A stretch of 64,000 nucleotides of DNA from Dehalococcoidia bacterium (GCA_964291495.2 OZ219871.1:1248001-1312000), one strand, 5' to 3'; counted from the first letter of the stretch, positions 2,451-10,487 are shown. The notes: generated from the sequence alone by a model not told the origin. A program made the numbers and translations.

Positions 2451-3518
2451 GTGGACGACGAGAAGCGCGGTCCGCTGGCCCGCACGCAGACCCCCGAAGA
2501 CATCTCGATCGAGCCCACCCTGCGCCCCCGGCGCCTCGAGGAGTACTTCGGTCAGGACACCGTCAAGGAGTCGCTGCGGATCGCGATCGCCGCGGCGAAG
2601 GGGCGGGGCGAACCGCTCGACCACCTGCTGATCCACGGCCCGCCCGGCCTCGGCAAGACGACGCTCGCGATGATCCTCGCGTCCGAGATGGGCGTCTCGA
2701 TCCGCGTCACCTCGGGGCCTGCGATCGAGCGCGCGGGCGACCTCGCCTCGGTGCTCACGAGCCTGCAGCCGGGCGACGTGCTGTTTATCGACGAGGTGCA
2801 CCGGCTGCCGCGCGTCGTCGAGGAGATCCTCTACCCGGCGATGGAGGACTGGGCGCTCGACATCATCCTCGGCAGCGGGCCGAAGGCGCGCGACGTGCGG
2901 CTCACGCTCAACCGCTTCACTCTGATCGCCGCGACCACGCGCTACGCGCTGGTCTCGCAGCCGCTGCGCGACCGCTTCGGGGCGAGCTACCGGTTGGACT
3001 TCTACGACGAGGCGGCGCTGAGCGAGATCGTGCGCCGCTCGGCCGGCGTGCTCGGCTGCTCCATCGACGCCGGCGGGGTCGCGGCCATCGCCAGCCGGGC
3101 GCGCGGCACCGCGCGCGTCGCCAACCGGCTGCTGCGCCGCGTGCGCGACTACGCCGAGGTGGAGGCGGACGGCGTGATCACGGAGCCGGTGGCCGCGCTC
3201 GCCCTCGCGCAGCTCGGTATCGACGAGCTGGGCCTCGACGCGATGGACCGCGAGCTGTTGCGCGTGTTGGTCGAGCGCTTCGGCGGCGGACCGGTGGGCC
3301 TCGAGACGCTGGCCGCAGCGGTCTCCGAAGAGGCCGACACGATCATGGACGTCTACGAGCCGTACCTGCTGAAGATCGGCTACCTGCAGCGCACCCCGCG
3401 CGGGCGGGTCGCCTCGCGGCTGGCGTACGACCGCCTCGGCCTGGAGCCGCCCCCGGCGCTGCTGGCCGCCGTCGCGCAGCAGCCCGCGCTGTTCGAGGAG
3501 AACGGCGCGAGCGCCTGA
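2451..3518 (+). CDS. ruvB: Holliday junction branch migration helicase RuvB
   Basis: [37 protein letters not shown]. Confidence 0.98.
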
Positions 3519-3522
3519 GGCC

Positions 3523-3729
3523 TCAGCGCACCCCCAGCACCATCGCGTCCACCGGGTTGCCGGCGTCGAAGACGGCGACGGCGAGGCGGCGGCCGGCCGT
3601 GAGCTGCGCGGCGGGGATGGCGCGCGAGACCGGCACGGACGTGACCACCGAGGAGAGCGATCCGGCGAAGCGCACGCTCGCCGTCCAGGCGGCGCTGTCG
3701 AAGGCGACCAGGGTGGCGCGCTCCAGCAC
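3523..3729 (-). CDS. Small (68 aa) spike/OB-fold-like virion protein
   Basis: GTG start 2 nt after the upstream stop, preceded by GGAGG; beta-rich sequence ATLVAFDSAAWTASVRF..VPVS..AGRRLAVAVFDAGNPVDAMVLGV resembling the N-domain of gpV/gp5-like spikes. Confidence 0.5.
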   Translation of the reverse strand: MLERATLVAFDSAAWTASVRFAGSLSSVVTSVPVSRAIPAAQLTAGRRLAVAVFDAGNPVDAMVLGVR

Positions 3730-3731
3730 CG

Positions 3732-5702
3732 TCAGACCTCCCCGAGCGTCAGCGTCTGCTCGTAGCGCGGGCGCGCTCCGCGGGCGAAGCGCAGGCGCAG
3801 GCCGGCGACGCGGAACCGCGCGGCCTCGAGGCCTGCCGCCGCATCGCTGACCTCGACGATGTCGCCGGGCTCCTGCACGACATTGGGCCGGACGAGCAGC
3901 TCGCCGCGCTCGACGGCGAGGCGCGACTGGCGCAACAGCGTGCCCGCGCGGGCGGCGACGCGGTCCTGCGCGCCGAGGTTCTCGTCGACGGCGATGACCG
4001 CGCCGGCGCCCTCGGCGATCGCCGACTCGTCGGTCGCCTCGGCGAAGACGCCACTGCCGAAGACCCGCGCCCAGCCGGCGGTCGGGCGGCCGGCCTCGAT
4101 CGCGTGCGCGAGGATGGCGTGGTCCGTGCCGTAGGCGTAGTCGGCCGCGGCGCTCGCGGCCTGCTCGGACAGCACGAGCAGGCGACCATCGCTGCGCAGC
4201 CGGTCCGGCAGCGCGCGCAGCAGCCGGTGCATCGCGGTGGCGGCGCGCTCGCCGGCGCGCATGGTGAACGCCGGGCGCAGCGCGCCAGATTCGGAGCTCG
4301 CGCGGCGCGCGGTCAGCCGCAGCCCGGCGCGCCGCGCGATCGCGGCGAGGATCTCGCCGGCGCTCCGCTGCCCCGCCTCCCATACAAGCTGCTCCGTGGC
4401 GACCCACGTCTCGAGCAGGCCGAGGCCGTCGACCGCGTCCACCTCGACGGTCGCGGTCCCCCCGCTGCGACGCCGCCGGACCGCGGCGATCCAGAAGCGC
4501 GGCCCCTCGGACGTCTCGATACCGGCGCTGCCGCGGTAGCCGGGATGCACCCGCAGCTCGCCGCCGGCCGCCAGGGCGACCGGGGCGCGGGCGCCGGCGT
4601 AGCGGCCGTCCTCATTGCGCAGCGTCAGCCGCAGCCGTCCCTGCTCGCGCTGATCGATCACGGCCTCCAGCACGTCGTCCGTCAGCTCGTGCTCGACGTG
4701 CGCGATGGGGGCGCGCCAGACCGCGTCCGGCGAGGCGAGCCAGGCGGCAGCGGGTGAGGCGACGGCGCCAAGGCCGTACGGAGAGACGTGGGCGAATGGG
4801 CGCGGATCGCGCCACTCGCCGTCGCCGTGGAGGCTGCCGGCAACGCCCGCCGTGATCTGCACGCGGTCGTAGGCGCCCGTCCCCCGGTACGACTCGGCAA
4901 ACACCGCCTGCGGTGCGTCGGCGCGGAGCAGGCCGCTTGCGAGGTAGCCGACGTCCGACCCCGCGGCGGCCGAGGCAACGGCGGCGAGCGGCAGCCAGTG
5001 ACCGGGCGGCTGCCCGCCGCCCACCCCGAGCACCGTGGACCAGACGCCCGCGGCCCCGTCCACCGTGGTCCCCGAGACCAGCACGTTGCAGTCGACCTCG
5101 AAGTACGCGGCGAGGCCGCTGACCGTCGCGAGCGAGCGCGACCAGGCGACGGGCGCGGACCACGCGCCGAGCCCCTGGCGGCGCACGGCGAACACCGTCC
5201 CGCCCGAGGCGTAGAGCACGGCCGCGGACCCGTCGGGGCCGATCGCCACCGCCACCGCCGTGACGGACGAGGCCGCCGTCGCCACCGTCCGTGGCGCTCC
5301 GAAGCTGGCGCCCGAGTCTGCGCTCTCGCGCACCTCCACGCGCTTGCCGTCGGCGCGGACGCTCGCGAGGAGAGCGCGGCTGCCGGAGGCGGCGAGTCCG
5401 AGGCGCGGCGCGACGGCGACCGTCCCGACGGCGGTCCAGGCGTCGAAGCCCTCCCCCGCGGCGGGGTCGGTCACACGCTGGCGGCTGAAGGCGCCGGTGA
5501 TGGGATCGATCCGCGCGCGCAGCAGCGCGCCGTCGCCCGCCGCGGCGAGGGCGCACGGGCCGTCGCGCTCGGCGCCCTCGTGGATGCGCTGCCAGCGCAA
5601 CCGGATCGCGCCGACGTCGCGGTCGAAGAGCCGCACGCGCAGGTAGGGCTCGGCGCTGGCCGCCTGCTGGGCCGCGCGCAGCGTAGGGGTGAGCGCGCGC
5701 AT
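3732..5702 (-). CDS. Phage tail hub/baseplate-like protein with an N-terminal Asp-box beta-propeller-like region
   Basis: ATG at 5702 (MRALTPTL); Asp-box SADSGASF; C-terminal hub-like segments (LRLTLRNEDGRY, VEVDAVDGLGLL, AGEILAAIARRAGL, GELLVRPNVVQEPGDIVEVSD). Confidence 0.55.
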   Translation of the reverse strand: MRALTPTLRAAQQAASAEPYLRVRLFDRDVGAIRLRWQRIHEGAERDGPCALAAAGDGALLRARIDPITGAFSRQRVTDPAAGEGFDAWTAVGTVAVAPRLGLAASGSRALLASVRADGKRVEVRESADSGASFGAPRTVATAASSVTAVAVAIGPDGSAAVLYASGGTVFAVRRQGLGAWSAPVAWSRSLATVSGLAAYFEVDCNVLVSGTTVDGAAGVWSTVLGVGGGQPPGHWLPLAAVASAAAGSDVGYLASGLLRADAPQAVFAESYRGTGAYDRVQITAGVAGSLHGDGEWRDPRPFAHVSPYGLGAVASPAAAWLASPDAVWRAPIAHVEHELTDDVLEAVIDQREQGRLRLTLRNEDGRYAGARAPVALAAGGELRVHPGYRGSAGIETSEGPRFWIAAVRRRRSGGTATVEVDAVDGLGLLETWVATEQLVWEAGQRSAGEILAAIARRAGLRLTARRASSESGALRPAFTMRAGERAATAMHRLLRALPDRLRSDGRLLVLSEQAASAAADYAYGTDHAILAHAIEAGRPTAGWARVFGSGVFAEATDESAIAEGAGAVIAVDENLGAQDRVAARAGTLLRQSRLAVERGELLVRPNVVQEPGDIVEVSDAAAGLEAARFRVAGLRLRFARGARPRYEQTLTLGEV

Positions 5703-5713
5703 GCCGGCCCGCG

Positions 5714-6319
5714 CTACCCGCCGCGCGGCGAGGAGAGCACGCCCGAGCGAGCGCGGCGAGCGCGGCCGTGCCGGGCCAGCGCGCGGGCGAACTCGGCGAG
5801 CCGTTCCTGCGCCCAGACATGGTAGTGCCGCCAGGTGTCCGCGCCGCCGACGTTCACCCGGTTGACCGCGAACGAGGCCCACTCCAGGGCCGCGTAGCCG
5901 CCCGCCCCCGTCGCTGCCAGGTCCTCGAGCGCCGGCGGCAGCGTGCTGCCGGCTTCGTCGAGCGTGTGCAGCTTCGAGTAGTGCACCGTGACCGCCTCGC
6001 CCCCGCCCGGCGGCGCAGCGACCTGCAGCGTCAGCGTGTCGCCCCAGAGCGAGAACGGCGGCCGCGAGGGCGGGTACTGCCCCACCGGGTACTCGACGGC
6101 CTCGATGCTGACGCGGTCGCTCAGGGTCGCGACGCTGAGGTCGCGGCTGCCGGCGACCGTCCGCAGCGCCGCGCTCGCCTCGAGCGGCGCGGCGAGCGAG
6201 AGCTCGCGGACGGCGCGCTCGATGTGACGGTCGAGCGCCTCGTCGGGCCAGCGCTGGTTGGCCGGATCGGTGTCGCGGAGGTCGCGGCGCAGCCGCGCGC
6301 GCATCGACGGCAGGTCCAT
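5714..6319 (-). CDS. Head-tail adaptor/connector-like protein
   Basis: ATG at 6319; N-terminal MRARLRRDLRD..RWPDEALDRHIERAVREL helix-W motif resembling phage adaptors; directly follows the capsid gene. Confidence 0.55.
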   Translation of the reverse strand: MDLPSMRARLRRDLRDTDPANQRWPDEALDRHIERAVRELSLAAPLEASAALRTVAGSRDLSVATLSDRVSIEAVEYPVGQYPPSRPPFSLWGDTLTLQVAAPPGGGEAVTVHYSKLHTLDEAGSTLPPALEDLAATGAGGYAALEWASFAVNRVNVGGADTWRHYHVWAQERLAEFARALARHGRARRARSGVLSSPRGG

Positions 6320-6358
6320 CTCGTCCTCGATTCGGGCTGGAAGGCGCTGGGTGGGGAG

Positions 6359-6399
6359 GAGGGCGGCCGTCCGGCGCACCGGCCGGACGAGCCGCCCTC
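6359..6399 (-). terminator. Strong GC hairpin after the capsid gene (partial terminator or mRNA stabiliser)
   Basis: GAGGGCGGC-CGTCCGGC pairs with GCCGGACG-a-GCCGCCCTC; 6 nt loop; no U-tract. Confidence 0.5.
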
Positions 6400-6413
6400 G
6401 TGCCGGCCTCGGC

Positions 6414-7304
6414 CTAGGGGCGGACGCCGCTGAGCTTCGCGAGCTTCAGCTCGTTGAAGAGCGCGACGGAGACGTACCACTTGACGCGCACGCGGGTGGC
6501 GTCCTTCGTCTCCAGCGCGCCGACCCGCTCGATCGTCAGTCCGCCCGGCGCGGTCAGCCCGGCCACGGCGCCCTCGCCGAACTGCAGGGCGTAGATCGTC
6601 GAGGTGTCCTCGGAGGCGCCGGTGGTGTCGTCGTCGGCGATGTGGTCGTTCACGCCGATCGGGATGCCGTCGTAGAAGGCGACCATGCGGCCGAACTCGT
6701 CGCGGTCGTGCTCGACGATCCCGCCGCCGCTGGCCCGCGCGAGCTTGTTGAGCGTACGCCGCGAGCGGCGCGACATCAGCAGCATCTCCGGCTTGCCGCC
6801 GCGCACGGAGTCGATCAGCTCGTCGAGCTTGTCGAGCGTCAGCGTCGCGCCGTTCGTCCCCATCGAGACCGTCTGGGCCGAGGCGCACAGCTCGGCGAGG
6901 CCGTCGAAGGACTTCGCGTCGCCGCTGGTATCGCCGTTGATGAAGGTGTCGTCGAACTTCTGCTGGACGGACTTCGCCTTGAGCGCGACGACCGCCGCCT
7001 CGATGTCCTGCACGTTGTTGCGGGTGCGGGCGATGTAGTTGTCGATGTCCGCGTCGCCGCCGAGGATCGTCAGCGCCGTCGTGATCTGCGTGAAGGTGGG
7101 CGTGTCCTCGGACCAGGTGTCGCCCACGTTGTAGAAGGCGGCCGAGGCCCCGAGCTTCTCGCGGTTGTAGGTCAGCCCGTTGCCGACGATCTCGATGAAC
7201 GGCAGCCGCTGCAGGATCGGGCTGTCGTAGACGACGGTCTCGATCACGCCCTCGAGCAGCACGTCGTTCGAGAGCTTCGCGCCTTCGGTCAGTGTCAGTG
7301 CCAT
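6414..7304 (-). CDS. Phage-type major capsid protein (probable HK97 fold)
   Basis: 296 aa; SPILQRLPF..GNGLTYNRE, ILGGDADIDNYI, KAKSVQQKFDDTFINGD..SFDGL, LDKLDELID, FYDGIPI, TSTIYALQFG, RVRVKWYVSVAL; AAGGAG RBS. Confidence 0.85.
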   Translation of the reverse strand: MALTLTEGAKLSNDVLLEGVIETVVYDSPILQRLPFIEIVGNGLTYNREKLGASAAFYNVGDTWSEDTPTFTQITTALTILGGDADIDNYIARTRNNVQDIEAAVVALKAKSVQQKFDDTFINGDTSGDAKSFDGLAELCASAQTVSMGTNGATLTLDKLDELIDSVRGGKPEMLLMSRRSRRTLNKLARASGGGIVEHDRDEFGRMVAFYDGIPIGVNDHIADDDTTGASEDTSTIYALQFGEGAVAGLTAPGGLTIERVGALETKDATRVRVKWYVSVALFNELKLAKLSGVRP

Positions 7305-7417
7305 GGTGTCGTGTCTCGCTCCTTCCGGCGCGCGCCGCGCGCCTCGCTCGTGATTGCCGCGGGCACGCTAGGGGCGCGCGCCGCCTGCTCCGAGGGCCAT
7401 GTGGCAGCGCTCGCCGG

Positions 7418-7906
7418 CTACGCCCGGGTCCGCTGCTCGAGGCCGTACGCGATCTTCTCGGCGGTGCTCATCGCCTCCGTGCGCGGCCCGCGCCGCTCCG
7501 GCGCACCGGCCGGGAAGCCGCGCACCGCCTCGTCCTCCGACTCGCGGGCGATCCGCTCGCGGATCTCGGCGACCGTGCGGCGCGCCGCCTCGACCGAGGC
7601 GTCGACCGCCTCGACGTCGTCGCCCTCGATCAGCTCCGGCGGCAGCGACGGCTCGGCCTGCAACAGCGCACCGCGATAACGCGCGACGGTGGCGCGGCGC
7701 GACGCTCGCTCCGCGTCGAGGGCGTCGCGGGCCTCCTGCAGCTCGCTGCGCAGCGTCGCCAGCTCATCGCGTTCCGCCTCGGCGACGGCCGCAAGCTCCG
7801 CCGCTGCCTCGTCGGGCAGGTCGTCCCCGGCCTGTTCGGGATCCGCGAGCGTCTCGCTCGAGGCCGCGTTCGCGCCGTCCTGCTCCATCGCGTCGTGCTC
7901 TGTCAT
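7418..7906 (-). CDS. Capsid scaffolding-like protein
   Basis: ATG at 7906 after AAGGAG; acidic disordered N-terminus, coiled coil, short C-terminal PAGAP..MSTAEKIAYGL tail; immediately upstream of the capsid gene. Confidence 0.65.
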   Translation of the reverse strand: MTEHDAMEQDGANAASSETLADPEQAGDDLPDEAAAELAAVAEAERDELATLRSELQEARDALDAERASRRATVARYRGALLQAEPSLPPELIEGDDVEAVDASVEAARRTVAEIRERIARESEDEAVRGFPAGAPERRGPRTEAMSTAEKIAYGLEQRTRA

Positions 7907-8021
7907 GCGTCTCTCCTTCGGGCATCCGGTGTTCCGGATCGGGGTCGTCGAAGGGGCACGCTGCGCGTTGCGCGTGGAAACTCCGAGGGTCGGGTGGCGC
8001 TCGGCGCGGTACGATCCGGCC

Positions 8022-8684
8022 ATGGCCACTTCCGAGACCGCGGCCTCCGAAGTCACGACGCCTCCCGAGGGAGCACGGATCGCGATCCGCCCGCTCGCGC
8101 CCGCCGACGTGCGCGCGGTGCGGCGGCTGGAGCGCGCCGCCTACGGATCCGCCAACCCGCGCACCGCGTTCGAGCGCGAGCTGCGCAACGGCCTCGCGAG
8201 CTACCTCGCCGCCGTTGACGCCACGCCCGGCGCCGCGCCCGGCGCCGCGCCACCGGCGCGACGAGGACCGCTCGCCTGGCTCCGACGGCGCCTCGGAGCT
8301 GCCGAGGGGCCGCCGATCCTCGGCTTCGCGGGCGCCTGGTACACGCACGAGCAGCTGCACCTGGTGACGCTCGCCGTCGATCCGCGGGCGCAGCGGCGGG
8401 GGATCGGGCTCGCGCTGGTGCTCGCCGTCTGCGACCTGGCGATCGAGGCCGAACTCGACAGCATCGCGCTGGAGGTGCGCGCCTCGAACGCGGGGGCGAT
8501 GCGGCTCTACAAGCGCTGCGGCTTCCGGCGCGTCGGGCGGCTGCGCAGCTACTACAGCGACAACGGCGAGGACGCGATCGTGATGCTGCTCGACGGGCTC
8601 ACCGCGCCCGAGCCGCCGGAGGCGCTGACCCTCGCGCGCCGCGCACGCGACGCTGCCGGTCGCACGGTGGGCGAGGAGGGCTGA
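8022..8684 (+). CDS. rimI: Ribosomal protein S18 alanine N-acetyltransferase (GNAT)
   Basis: HLVTLAVDPRAQRRGIG, LEVRASN..AMRLYKRCGF..RSYYSDNGEDAIVM. Confidence 0.9.
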   Translation: MATSETAASEVTTPPEGARIAIRPLAPADVRAVRRLERAAYGSANPRTAFERELRNGLASYLAAVDATPGAAPGAAPPARRGPLAWLRRRLGAAEGPPILGFAGAWYTHEQLHLVTLAVDPRAQRRGIGLALVLAVCDLAIEAELDSIALEVRASNAGAMRLYKRCGFRRVGRLRSYYSDNGEDAIVMLLDGLTAPEPPEALTLARRARDAAGRTVGEEG

Positions 8685-8705
8685 GGTGCGCGGCGGAAGC
8701 CGGAC

Positions 8706-9173: not shown

Positions 9174-9656
9174 CTACGAGGGGCCAGCGTCCGCCTCGAT
9201 CTCACGAGGCGCCGCGCGCAGGTCCGGTGCGGCGAGCAGCATCAGCAGCGTCACGATCACCGCGGAGCCGACGCACCACACGCAGATCGCCTCGATCTCG
9301 AACAGCTCGAGCCACGTGAGGTACGCGGAGTAGAGCGTGCCGCCGAGGGCGAGCGCGAAGGTCAGGCCGGCCAGTGCCTGCGGCGGCGTTTCGCCGCCGC
9401 GCAGCTCGGCCCACCAGCGCCGCGCCGCGACCAGCGCGAGCAGCGCGAGGTACATCCCGAGGCCGAGCACCGCGATCGGCACGCCGGCGATCTCGGCGAA
9501 CTCGGAACCCTGCACCGTCTGGCAGTCGCCGACGCCGGAGCAGGCCGCCTCTTGCCCCTCATCGAGGGCGACCCAGCTGAGGTAGCCGGCCACCGCGACG
9601 CCGGCGATCGCGAGCGCGAGCAGCAGGTCGTGGCGGCGTGCGAGCAGGAAGGTCAC
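9174..9656 (-). CDS. Vitamin K epoxide reductase (VKOR) family disulfide bond formation protein
   Basis: ACSGVGDCQTVQGS loop cysteines, CVWC active site, four hydrophobic helices. Confidence 0.92.
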   Translation of the reverse strand: MTFLLARRHDLLLALAIAGVAVAGYLSWVALDEGQEAACSGVGDCQTVQGSEFAEIAGVPIAVLGLGMYLALLALVAARRWWAELRGGETPPQALAGLTFALALGGTLYSAYLTWLELFEIEAICVWCVGSAVIVTLLMLLAAPDLRAAPREIEADAGPS

Positions 9657-9668
9657 GGCCCAGGGCGG

Positions 9669-10487
9669 CTAGCTGCCGTCGTCCGGCACGAGGCGATCAA
9701 TCACCTCGCGGAAGCGCTCGATCGGCTGGGCGCCGGGAACCACTTGCCCGTTGATCAGGAAGTTCGGGGTCGACAACCTGCCGAGCAGACCCTGGAGCAC
9801 CTGGGCGGACTGCCGGGCCTCCTCCTCGACGATCAGCTCCTTGATGCCGGACTCGACGCAGTCATCGAACCTGCCGAGGTCGAAGGCGCCCTCGGGCAGC
9901 TGCGCAGCGACCTCGCGCGCGAAGTTCTTGAGGTTGCCCTCGGAAGCCCAGCCGGCGCGGCCCTGGCGCTGGAAGAGCACGTCGTGATACGGCCAGAAGA
10001 GGTTCTGGTCGACGGCGCACTCGGAGGCCGCGGCGGCGTTGACCGAGTCCGGTCCGAGCAGCGGGAGGTGCCGGAACTCGATCGAGACGAGGCCCTGGTT
10101 GATGTACTCCTCCTCGATCAGCGGCTTGGTGTCGCGGCTGAAGTCGCCGCAGTGCCCGCAGGTGAAGTCCTCGTAAGCGACGATGCGCACCGGCGCGTCC
10201 GGGCTCCCGAGCTGCTTCCCGTCGACGGGCGCCGACGATCCGCGGTACTCGAACTCGAGATCCCCGGCGGCGTTGCTGCCGCCGGGGCGATTGAACCAGA
10301 TCAGCGCCGCGACGATGACGACGGTCGCAACGACGATGCCGATGGTGAGGAAGCCGCCGAACGAGTCGATCGTCGCCTTTAGGCCGCGGCCCTCTTGCTG
10401 CGTCTGCTGCTCGGCCTGCTGTTCCTGGGACTGCTGCCCCGCACCCGGTCCTCCTCGGCGGCGGCGACGACGGCGACGACTACCCAC
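9669..10487 (-). CDS. Membrane-anchored DsbA/BdbD-type thiol-disulfide oxidoreductase
   Basis: LGSPDAPVRIVAYEDFTCGHC, STPNFLING, GAQP; N-terminal TM helix. Confidence 0.9.
   Translation of the reverse strand: MGSRRRRRRRRGGPGAGQQSQEQQAEQQTQQEGRGLKATIDSFGGFLTIGIVVATVVIVAALIWFNRPGGSNAAGDLEFEYRGSSAPVDGKQLGSPDAPVRIVAYEDFTCGHCGDFSRDTKPLIEEEYINQGLVSIEFRHLPLLGPDSVNAAAASECAVDQNLFWPYHDVLFQRQGRAGWASEGNLKNFAREVAAQLPEGAFDLGRFDDCVESGIKELIVEEEARQSAQVLQGLLGRLSTPNFLINGQVVPGAQPIERFREVIDRLVPDDGS

Follow-up and report, generated by a model that had tools for sequence, protein, structure and literature searches.

A stretch of 64,000 nucleotides from the genome of a Dehalococcoidia bacterium (GCA_964291495.2, OZ219871.1:1248001-1312000; called the window below) carries five phage-derived genes, g1-g5, at positions 3,523 to 7,906. 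These genes are one half of an eight-gene, phage-derived and chromosomally fixed system which is vertically inherited in the Dehalococcoidia and evolves under purifying selection. The other half consists of a small open reading frame (ORF), a terminase gene (TerL) and a portal gene, and is located about 300 kb away on the same contig. We regard a selected particle-forming system of the gene transfer agent (GTA) type as the best explanation, with a probability of roughly 0.6. The genes would then specify a DNA-packaging particle of phage origin which the host maintains and whose tail has no tube and ends in a hub; that such particles form, contain DNA and transfer it is what we infer. The window corresponds to C5:1248001-1312000 of an assembly of 3.08 Mb in 8 contigs that is 93.7% complete. 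Below, g1-g5 are the five genes of the window, L-numbers denote related loci, G-numbers genomes and f-numbers GTDB families.

The two loci and the host genes that flank g1-g5 comprise the following features (window coordinates, unless a contig is given).

7418..7906, minus strand: g1, scaffold-like protein of 162 amino acids, acidic, with a predicted coiled coil, directly upstream of the capsid gene
6414..7304, minus strand: g2, HK97-type major capsid protein by family match, 296 amino acids, without a delta domain
5714..6319, minus strand: g3, putative SU10-type portal adaptor, 201 amino acids from the ATG at 6319; the ORF is open from a GTG at 6379
3732..5702, minus strand: g4, predicted beta-propeller plus predicted baseplate hub, 656 amino acids
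3523..3729, minus strand: g5, predicted OB-fold barrel that may plug the hub or form the base of a spike on it, 68 amino acids
2451..3518, plus strand: ruvB, host flank, convergent with g5 (PF05496, E 2.5e-74; PF17864; PF05491)
8022..8684, plus strand: GNAT acetyltransferase (RimI-like), host flank, divergent from g1 (PF00583, E 2.1e-15)
C5:948781-949116: small ORF in the position of a small terminase gene, just upstream of TerL, 111 amino acids

The window genes and their distant partners

An initial annotation, made from the sequence of the window, had described five intact and co-oriented genes next to ruvB, the last three nearly abutting and with a base composition like that of the neighbouring genes. 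This description holds. All five genes lie on the minus strand without internal stops between ruvB and the GNAT gene, which was assigned by its PF00583 match. The gaps are 34-94 bp between g2 and g3, 11 bp between g3 and g4 and 2 bp between g4 and g5, while the stop codon of g5 is separated by 4 bp from the convergent stop of ruvB. Orthologues of g3 align from the ATG at 6319 and not from the alternative GTG at 6379. The guanine-plus-cytosine (GC) content is 0.70-0.78 across 3501-8000, the same as in the flanks; only the segment 1501-2500 is lower (0.63-0.67).

Of the head proteins, g2 matches the family Phage_capsid (PF05065) with an E value of 2.7e-12 and 47.1 bits (gathering cut-off 24.2), and also SU10_MCP (PF17236, E 1.6e-6) and phrog_212, annotated as 'major head protein' (E 1.4e-71). 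By these sequence matches g2 is an HK97-type major capsid protein, in agreement with the class proposed earlier for 6414-7304. Its best phage relatives are siphophages of Pseudomonas, Acinetobacter and Xanthomonas, with 42% identity (291 matching records among 50,697 phage records). The g3 protein aligns with SU10_adaptor (PF24175) over profile positions 1-187 of 194, with E 1.5e-9 and 39 bits (cut-off 27), and the same family is matched by 27 of 28 g3 orthologues (best E 1.1e-12). By this family membership g3 can be classed as an SU10-type portal adaptor. A tblastn search of the 50,697 phage records with the g3 adaptor gave zero matches, as did phmmer searches of the PDB sequences with adaptor, capsid and portal; the adaptor profile found only a weak top match among the PDB sequences (7wmp_m, 'Adaptor protein gp12', E 0.14). 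For g1 there is no significant Pfam family and there are only weak matches to PHROG scaffold families (phrog_9857, E 0.0072; phrog_1793, E 0.016). In 49 of 80 related loci the capsid gene is preceded by an orthologue of g1.

Neither g4 nor g5 belongs to a Pfam family, and their assignments are based on predicted folds. The AlphaFold2 model of g4, obtained with 38 orthologues (pLDDT 93.5, pTM 0.89), consists of two halves: a beta-propeller of approximately residues 1-335 and a domain of approximately residues 340-656 with the hub fold of gp27, gpD and Mu gp44. Foldseek searches of the PDB with the hub half retrieved 7b5h_AJ (2.8e-15), Mu gp44 (1wru, 9e-15, TMt 0.70) and T4 gp27 (1k28_D, 1e-9), as well as the R2 pyocin hub (6u5h, TMt 0.70) and VgrG. 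The TMt values to Mu gp44, 3d37, the R2 pyocin hub and phage Milano are in the range of 0.65-0.72. With the N-terminal half, sialidases and propeller lectins were matched at ca. 1e-8 in the PDB, and in BFVD the g4 model retrieved entries named 'Tail protein', 'COG3500 Phage protein D' and '43 kDa tail protein', from 5.5e-18. The structural model thus identifies the C-terminal half of g4 as a predicted baseplate hub of the gp27/gpD/Mu gp44 fold. A tblastn search with the hub gave zero matches in the 50,697 phage records.

The g5 protein, modelled from 36 orthologues (pLDDT 94.1), is predicted to form a five-stranded OB barrel, and its gene is always located directly downstream of the hub gene in related loci. 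No PDB match of g5 was found by Foldseek at E <= 0.001. The top matches are IF-1 (6e-3), P2 gpV (3qr8, 9e-3), baseplate chains of Mu (9ki1_V) and P1, and the R2 pyocin spike. Because no E value reaches 0.001 and IF-1 scores best, 'spike' is only a compatible reading of g5. Of the labels given to the five genes in the initial annotation, those of scaffold (on weak PHROG matches plus position), capsid, adaptor and hub can be kept, whereas 'spike' is replaced by a generic OB barrel without a spike domain.

The earlier suggestion that terminase and portal are absent from the 64 kb and encoded elsewhere is supported. The only matches in the genome are outside the window, in a second locus (C5:948781-952722) that holds the 111-residue ORF, TerL and the portal gene. 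Family searches of the whole genome yielded one Terminase_6C match (PF17289, E 2.2e-8) and one SPP1-type portal match (PF05133, E 7.7e-13). The two genes are intact and adjoin each other at C5:949.6-952.7 kb, with likely starts that give proteins of 491 (TerL) and 408 (portal) amino acids; they are followed by an unrelated gene on the other strand. Support from PHROG comprises phrog_64 for the portal (E 1e-20) and four TerL families for the terminase (from 5e-7). Searches of the same genome with PF03237, PF04860 and PF03354 gave zero matches, and a search with PF13264 gave no match either, which is uninformative since the control matched 0 of 14 genomes. Protein-cluster comparison of the small upstream ORF, done with its orthologue in L092, found only unnamed Chloroflexota clusters at a similarity of 0.96; the named clusters (T5 small terminase, DUF1804, DUF5681) score below 0.8 and are leads only. 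In TerL, a Walker-A-like motif, a Walker-B-like motif and three acidic nuclease motifs, as we take them to be, are kept in at least 90% of 18 sequences.

Conservation, inheritance and selection of the module

Relatives of the capsid gene were collected in a scan of one genome per species, which gave 374 relatives among 475 candidate stretches. Counts of loci refer to the best 80 of these (70-96% identity), all of which are titled Chloroflexota metagenome-assembled genomes; many of the loci are short contigs. Among the 80 loci, the adaptor gene is present in 59, the hub gene in 58, the OB gene in 52 and the scaffold gene in 49. Where capsid, adaptor, hub and OB genes occur together they are colinear on one strand in all cases (50 of 50). 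In L091, L092, L093 and L098 the module forms a single block, in the order small ORF-TerL-portal-scaffold-capsid-adaptor-hub-OB, with the small ORF undetected in L098. The ruvB gene adjoins the OB gene in 27 of the 80 loci, in either orientation, and a GNAT gene is found beside the module in 27 of the 80; both flanks are kept across genera.

In other lineages, variable genes are situated between the module genes. These include the defence-type genes for Fic, an AAA_21/OLD-like ATPase, a C5 cytosine methylase and a PD-(D/E)XK nuclease, and further genes for a phosphotriesterase, a ConA-like lectin (Laminin_G_3) and a beta-helix protein. The insert sites are L039 1881-6594, L023 5269-9861, L092 7547-9133, L098 8135-9103 and L091 8424-9110, and the portal-scaffold and capsid-adaptor junctions behave like insertion hot spots. 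The genome of the window has zero inserts, with only 35 bp between its capsid and adaptor genes, and therefore the inserts are not part of the core. A gene of no known family that encodes ca. 130 amino acids directly follows the capsid gene in L092 (10942-11340) and in 27 other loci, with 39-75% identity; it is absent from the genome of the window and from its close relatives.

The distribution in the class was determined with an evenly drawn sample of 201 Dehalococcoidia genomes. The capsid gene was found in 116, the portal gene in 127 and TerL in 139 of these, with all three present in 107 genomes and all three lacking in 57. A capsid gene is accompanied by a portal gene in 109 genomes; capsid without portal was seen in 7, portal without capsid in 18 and neither in 67. 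Among the 7 genomes with a capsid and no portal are two with divergent capsids (32-35% identity), probably those of true phages, and three that are only 63-88% complete. When only genomes with a completeness of 90% or more and a contamination of 5% or less are counted, 87 of 146 have the capsid gene. Complete genomes of 1.7-1.9 Mb that carry the capsid gene occur in f47. Families are all-or-none, as for the capsid gene (f6 10/10, f21 8/9, f16 8/10 and f1 7/9; f23 0/9, f25 0/5 and f30 0/5); the distribution is clade-wise rather than patchy and strain-specific. The copies are mostly single and intact, with 54-84% identity to the capsid of the window. In a sample of 251 genomes from the phylum, 28 matched at E <= 1e-20, of which 13 are outside the class; these 13 show 47-56% identity and belong to six families. 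Large families had no match in this sample (for example 0/16, 0/15, 0/14 and 0/14).

Agreement of the capsid tree with taxonomy, which had been suggested as a test of domestication, is near-perfect at the level of GTDB families. The tree was calculated from 78 orthologues (intact hits among the 116 positives, in families with at least two members), the capsid of the window and two divergent outgroup rows, with the strand of each row chosen by similarity to the capsid of the window. On this tree the 20 family labels can be explained by 20 changes, where the minimum is 19 and the mean after shuffling 64.0 (0 of 200 shuffles as low), and 13 of the 15 largest families lie on one side of a branch. 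For the portal tree, based on 60 of the 127 positives and the window, 17 labels are explained by the minimum of 16 changes, a value reached by 0 of 200 shuffles. The patristic distances of the capsid and portal trees are correlated (r = 0.56, 1,830 pairs, Mantel 0/999). In the 27 loci that hold both genes, the identity of the capsid to that of the window follows the identity of RuvB with r = 0.96 and a mean difference of -0.8 points.

The arrangement of the two parts on the chromosome also depends on lineage. In 66 genomes with both positions readable on one contig, capsid and portal genes are less than 8 kb apart in 38, 8-35 kb apart in 8 and at least 45 kb apart in 20. The spacing is 46-114 kb in all ten f6 genomes and 9-31 kb in four f1 genomes. 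In the genus of the window the distance is 0.3 Mb here and 2.0 Mb in G092, the other genome with both genes on one contig. The split layout is itself inherited. The GC content of module-bearing loci ranges from 0.48 to 0.71, and that of third codon positions (GC3) in the capsid gene from 0.67 to 0.95; the module follows its host in composition, as expected after long residence in the host.

Selection was estimated from pairwise ratios of nonsynonymous to synonymous substitution rates (dN/dS, Nei-Gojobori) for the window and the 13 closest of the 80 loci. The median values are 0.195 for ruvB, 0.255 for the capsid gene, 0.29 for the OB gene, 0.35 for the adaptor gene, 0.42 for the scaffold gene, 0.445 for the hub gene and 0.52 for the GNAT neighbour. 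The values of the module thus fall between those of ruvB and the GNAT neighbour, and selection on it is purifying (0.255-0.445) and not relaxed.

Function of the module and alternative explanations

The RcGTA-type GTAs of the Alphaproteobacteria, named after that of Rhodobacter capsulatus (RcGTA), are chromosomally fixed, phage-derived sets of head and tail genes without integrase or replication genes. They are vertically inherited in a large clade under purifying selection, and their genes may be located at several loci. The eight-gene module fits this description in its gene content, with chromosomal structural and packaging genes and no recombinase near either locus (replication and repressor genes were not searched by family), and in its inheritance, with tree congruence, capsid identity that tracks RuvB, and purifying selection. 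A GTA-like agent with split loci was one of the options offered in the initial annotation; the second locus, the class-wide co-occurrence of capsid, portal and TerL and the contiguous block in other genomes argue for it.

A particle of this kind might be assembled as follows. Portal, scaffold and capsid protein would form a procapsid, which the terminase would fill with DNA, most likely host DNA by headful packaging as in GTAs, since there is no integrase, no recognised replication module and no contiguous genome to package. In many genomes the module genes are 46 kb to 2 Mb apart, and therefore they would not be packaged together. The SU10-type adaptor would close the portal, and a trimeric gp27-like hub capped by the OB-fold protein would form a tube-less tail tip. 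The N-terminal beta-propeller of g4 may bind surface glycans of the recipient and so act as an adsorption device, with an OB trimer as the putative plug.

The module resembles RcGTA as a chromosomal structural and packaging set without integration functions that is spread over several loci, vertically inherited and under purifying selection. Unlike RcGTA, it occurs in another phylum and apparently has an independent origin, the nearest capsids being siphophage members of phrog_212 at 42% identity. RcGTA and the module both include TerL, a portal, an HK97-type capsid and an adaptor; the gene list of RcGTA further comprises a protease, the head-tail connectors, a tail tube, a tape measure and the distal tail and hub proteins. 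The module has only eight conserved genes, among which no tube, tape measure, protease, terminator or distal tail protein was recognised; it has a separate scaffold, whereas the head of RcGTA is processed by a protease, and its hub carries a beta-propeller.

The adaptor family PF24175 is shared with Escherichia phage SU10 (Kuravirus), and the capsid also matches the SU10_MCP family. According to the accessible part of the structural description, the podovirus tail of SU10 is made up of a portal, an adaptor, a nozzle and a tail needle (PMC9509320). As in this arrangement, the short tail of the module would sit immediately on the adaptor, and a protein would close its distal end. It differs from SU10, as far as described there, in that a predicted gp27/gpD-fold hub takes the place of the nozzle and a 68-residue OB barrel that of the needle; no fibres were recognised in the module.

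The gp27/gpD hub fold occurs in phages with long tails, in contractile injection systems and in type VI secretion. The modelled C-terminal half of g4 shares it with the P2, Mu and T4 baseplates, pyocins, contractile injection systems and the VgrG protein of type VI secretion, and the modelled OB barrel of g5 resembles the N-domains of the gpV and gp45 spikes, a match which is generic, as IF-1 scores as well. In contrast to hub-spikes of the P2/Mu/T4 type, the module lacks recognised genes for tube, sheath and baseplate wedge, and its OB protein has no beta-helical spike or tip. The N-terminal fusion to a beta-propeller also sets g4 apart from the hubs that it matches.

Capsid-forming phage-inducible chromosomal islands (cf-PICI) are satellites with genes of their own for a small capsid, a portal, a terminase and a head-tail adaptor, but not for a full tail. 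The module likewise encodes capsid, portal, terminase and adaptor without a full tail. Unlike cf-PICI, it has no integrase and no recognised replication or regulatory module, is divided over split loci, possesses its own hub and candidate plug and is inherited vertically instead of as a mobile element. With encapsulins it has a host-maintained HK97-type shell in common, whereas its capsid gene co-occurs with portal, terminase, scaffold and tail-tip genes. This co-occurrence argues for a DNA-filled, portal-bearing capsid and not for a closed shell loaded with cargo. Encapsulins are ruled out by the presence of portal and TerL in 107 of the 116 capsid-positive genomes, in many of them contiguous with the capsid gene, and a tailocin is ruled out by the presence of capsid and terminase. 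An unrelated filamentous element, IME1, was considered as well; the accessible part of the preprint (10.64898/2026.09.15.751708) established no link to the module.

That the five genes are not a decaying prophage, and that the window has neither an integrase nor a tRNA gene, had both been stated in the initial annotation. ARAGORN detected no tRNA or tmRNA in the 64 kb, and none of the 3 tyrosine- and 2 serine-recombinase matches of the genome is located in the window or within 90 kb of the TerL-portal locus; the closest that any of them comes to either locus is about 100 kb, measured from TerL. A tblastn search of the whole genome with 17 proteins of the related siphophage PaMx11 matched the capsid alone (E 4e-56), all others having E >= 0.1. 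In IMG/VR, 213 contigs carry relatives. The best 80 of these are fragments of 4-16 kb with the same gene order, not complete prophages, and where their flanks were scanned no further phage genes were found, except for a serine recombinase in L185. In this contig a large serine recombinase of 575 amino acids (4936-7142; Resolvase, Recombinase and Zn ribbon domains) abuts a truncated portal gene, as if a mobile element had inserted into the module. A prophage, intact or decaying, is ruled out by the lack of a nearby tRNA or integrase gene, by the family-specific split spacing, by the clade-wise distribution and by the congruent tree (lysis and replication genes were not searched by family).

Several observations weigh against a GTA that transfers DNA. 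The formation of particles, the packaging of DNA and its transfer are predicted from the genes, and such a particle would require its hub to dock directly on the adaptor ring. No genes for lysis, regulators, tail tube or fibres were identified, with no family searches made for tube, sheath, tape measure, lysis, repressor or replication. In TerL, the lysine of the Walker-A-like motif is followed by a conserved Asn and not by Ser or Thr, the residues of the consensus. Evidence for expression is weak: one sponge metatranscriptome contains short contigs of ca. 92-95% identity that cover the hub/OB junction, the adaptor and the capsid at a depth of 2.7-7, and these are assembled contigs for which DNA carry-over is possible.

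The system is also dispensable, since whole families lack the module and some copies have decayed. Copies broken by stops or into pieces occur in G073, G003, G153 and G058, and in G055 (L183, G055:C1:366000-384000; a 1.5-Mb genome with a GC content of 0.48) portal residues 15-299 run straight into hub residues 262-656 followed by the OB gene. Scaffold, capsid and adaptor genes have been deleted there; the opposite strand still has an intact TerL and an intact small ORF. Genomes of f21 have 2-7 TerL matches each. In one of them, G020, the three extra copies that were examined (L179, L180 and L181 at C1 ca. 434 kb, 2.25 Mb and 2.90 Mb) are solitary segments of 1.4-2.2 kb. They have short flanking repeats in common, are accompanied by none of the other module genes, and share 80-84% DNA identity mutually and with the module's own copy. 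These may represent a TerL-only mobile or duplicating unit, so that part of the system may still be mobile. The inserts between module genes resemble the moron or defence hot spots of prophages. Both trees were calculated in quick mode with SH-aLRT support only, and congruence at the family level leaves room for transfer within families. Finally, the dN/dS values of the hub and scaffold genes (0.445 and 0.42) are not low in absolute terms; the comparison with the neighbouring genes outweighs these absolute values because dS is compressed at a GC3 near 0.9.

The conservation that argues for a GTA would be equally expected if the module had been domesticated for a purpose other than transfer, since selection would then act on that role. 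One possibility is an anti-phage or abortive device: upon infection, DNA would be sequestered or cut by the terminase and the capsids. Others are a killer particle and a vehicle for a specific cargo. The repeated insertion of defence-type genes and the minimal tail without a recognisable DNA conduit are consistent with this. However, the inserts are not core, there being none in the genome of the window, and the full packaging set (small ORF, TerL with its kept motifs, portal, scaffold and capsid) together with an adsorption-type hub comprises what the delivery of DNA needs. We therefore consider a non-transfer role rather unlikely, and prefer the GTA.

The same genes could also belong to satellites or defective temperate phages that diverge along with their hosts and are still mobilised, for example by a helper phage which provides tails, lysis and replication. 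The 213 IMG/VR contigs with relatives, the large serine recombinase beside the truncated portal gene of L185, the multiple TerL copies of f21 and the 42% identity of the capsid to those of lytic siphophages fit such an origin. We judge it quite improbable, since the best 80 of the IMG/VR contigs are short fragments of identical order with no further phage genes where scanned, and the module could not be packaged as a unit, its parts being 46 kb to 2 Mb apart in many genomes, at distances specific to the family. Furthermore, no integrase is found near either locus in the genome of the window, the capsid gene mostly occurs as a single copy, the capsid has diverged to the same extent as RuvB, and the ruvB and GNAT flanks are kept across genera. 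Persistence of a functionless prophage remnant by chance is very unlikely and indeed hardly credible, even though some lineages have lost or broken the module and its function is a proposed one: neutral remnants do not stay open over such divergence. The genes are intact and colinear in all 50 loci that hold capsid, adaptor, hub and OB genes, their dN/dS values are within the range of housekeeping neighbours, the module is kept across the class at 54-84% capsid identity, and the catalytic motifs of TerL are maintained.

A more far-reaching version of the GTA explanation is that the module is an ancient Chloroflexota GTA of independent origin with a new virion architecture, in which the portal adaptor of a DNA-filled HK97 capsid directly bears a trimeric gp27-like hub with a glycan-binding propeller and an OB plug, without tube, nozzle or fibres, and that it serves as the main route of chromosomal exchange in the Dehalococcoidia. 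We put this forward tentatively, with less than even confidence.

Significance and further observations

To our knowledge, only a handful of GTA lineages are known and none of them is from the Chloroflexota. A literature search on Dehalococcoidia and Chloroflexota, which stopped short of full texts and supplements, found no description of such a module. In databases the capsid is labelled 'phage major capsid protein' only, and the hub is a 'hypothetical protein'. If our interpretation is correct, a class-wide and vertically inherited packaging particle would mean that a tailed phage had been domesticated independently once more. Its environmental abundance would be very high, considering that at least 5,707 capsid protein clusters were found at E <= 1e-40. 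The Dehalococcoidia include sponge symbionts and some organohalide respirers, and almost no genetic tools exist for them. A GTA would provide a mechanism for chromosomal gene exchange in this hard-to-culture lineage, and a natural DNA-delivery vehicle for organisms without genetic tools. A tube-less tail of adaptor, hub and OB protein would be of interest to structural virologists. Virus-mining pipelines count the module as viral, as in IMG/VR, which may inflate prophage and virus-host counts for the Chloroflexota.

Parts of the window were present in 23 sequencing runs, and half or more of it in one run (X1) only, which may be the sample of origin; the small shares in sponge and reef metagenomes are not taken to indicate a habitat. 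At 75% GC, every real gene is covered by long antisense or out-of-frame ORFs throughout the window, for example at 3523-8700. In two distant carriers of the module, large proteins with TIG, Big_6 and Rha78A-type Ig domains are encoded beside the portal gene on the opposite strand (L091 13301-15739 and L253 2199-4049).

Just upstream of ruvB, the window contains a gene for a PIN-domain (VapC-like) protein on the plus strand (1926-2363; PF01850, E 1e-11), which overlaps an upstream ORF of 114 amino acids that belongs to no family. The pair spans 1595-2363, inside the only lower-GC patch of the region, and looks like a toxin-antitoxin pair. On the other side, downstream of the acetyltransferase gene, a VKOR-family protein (PF07884) is encoded beside a DsbA-like thioredoxin (PF13462) on the minus strand (9174-10487); these two form a disulfide-bond formation pair.

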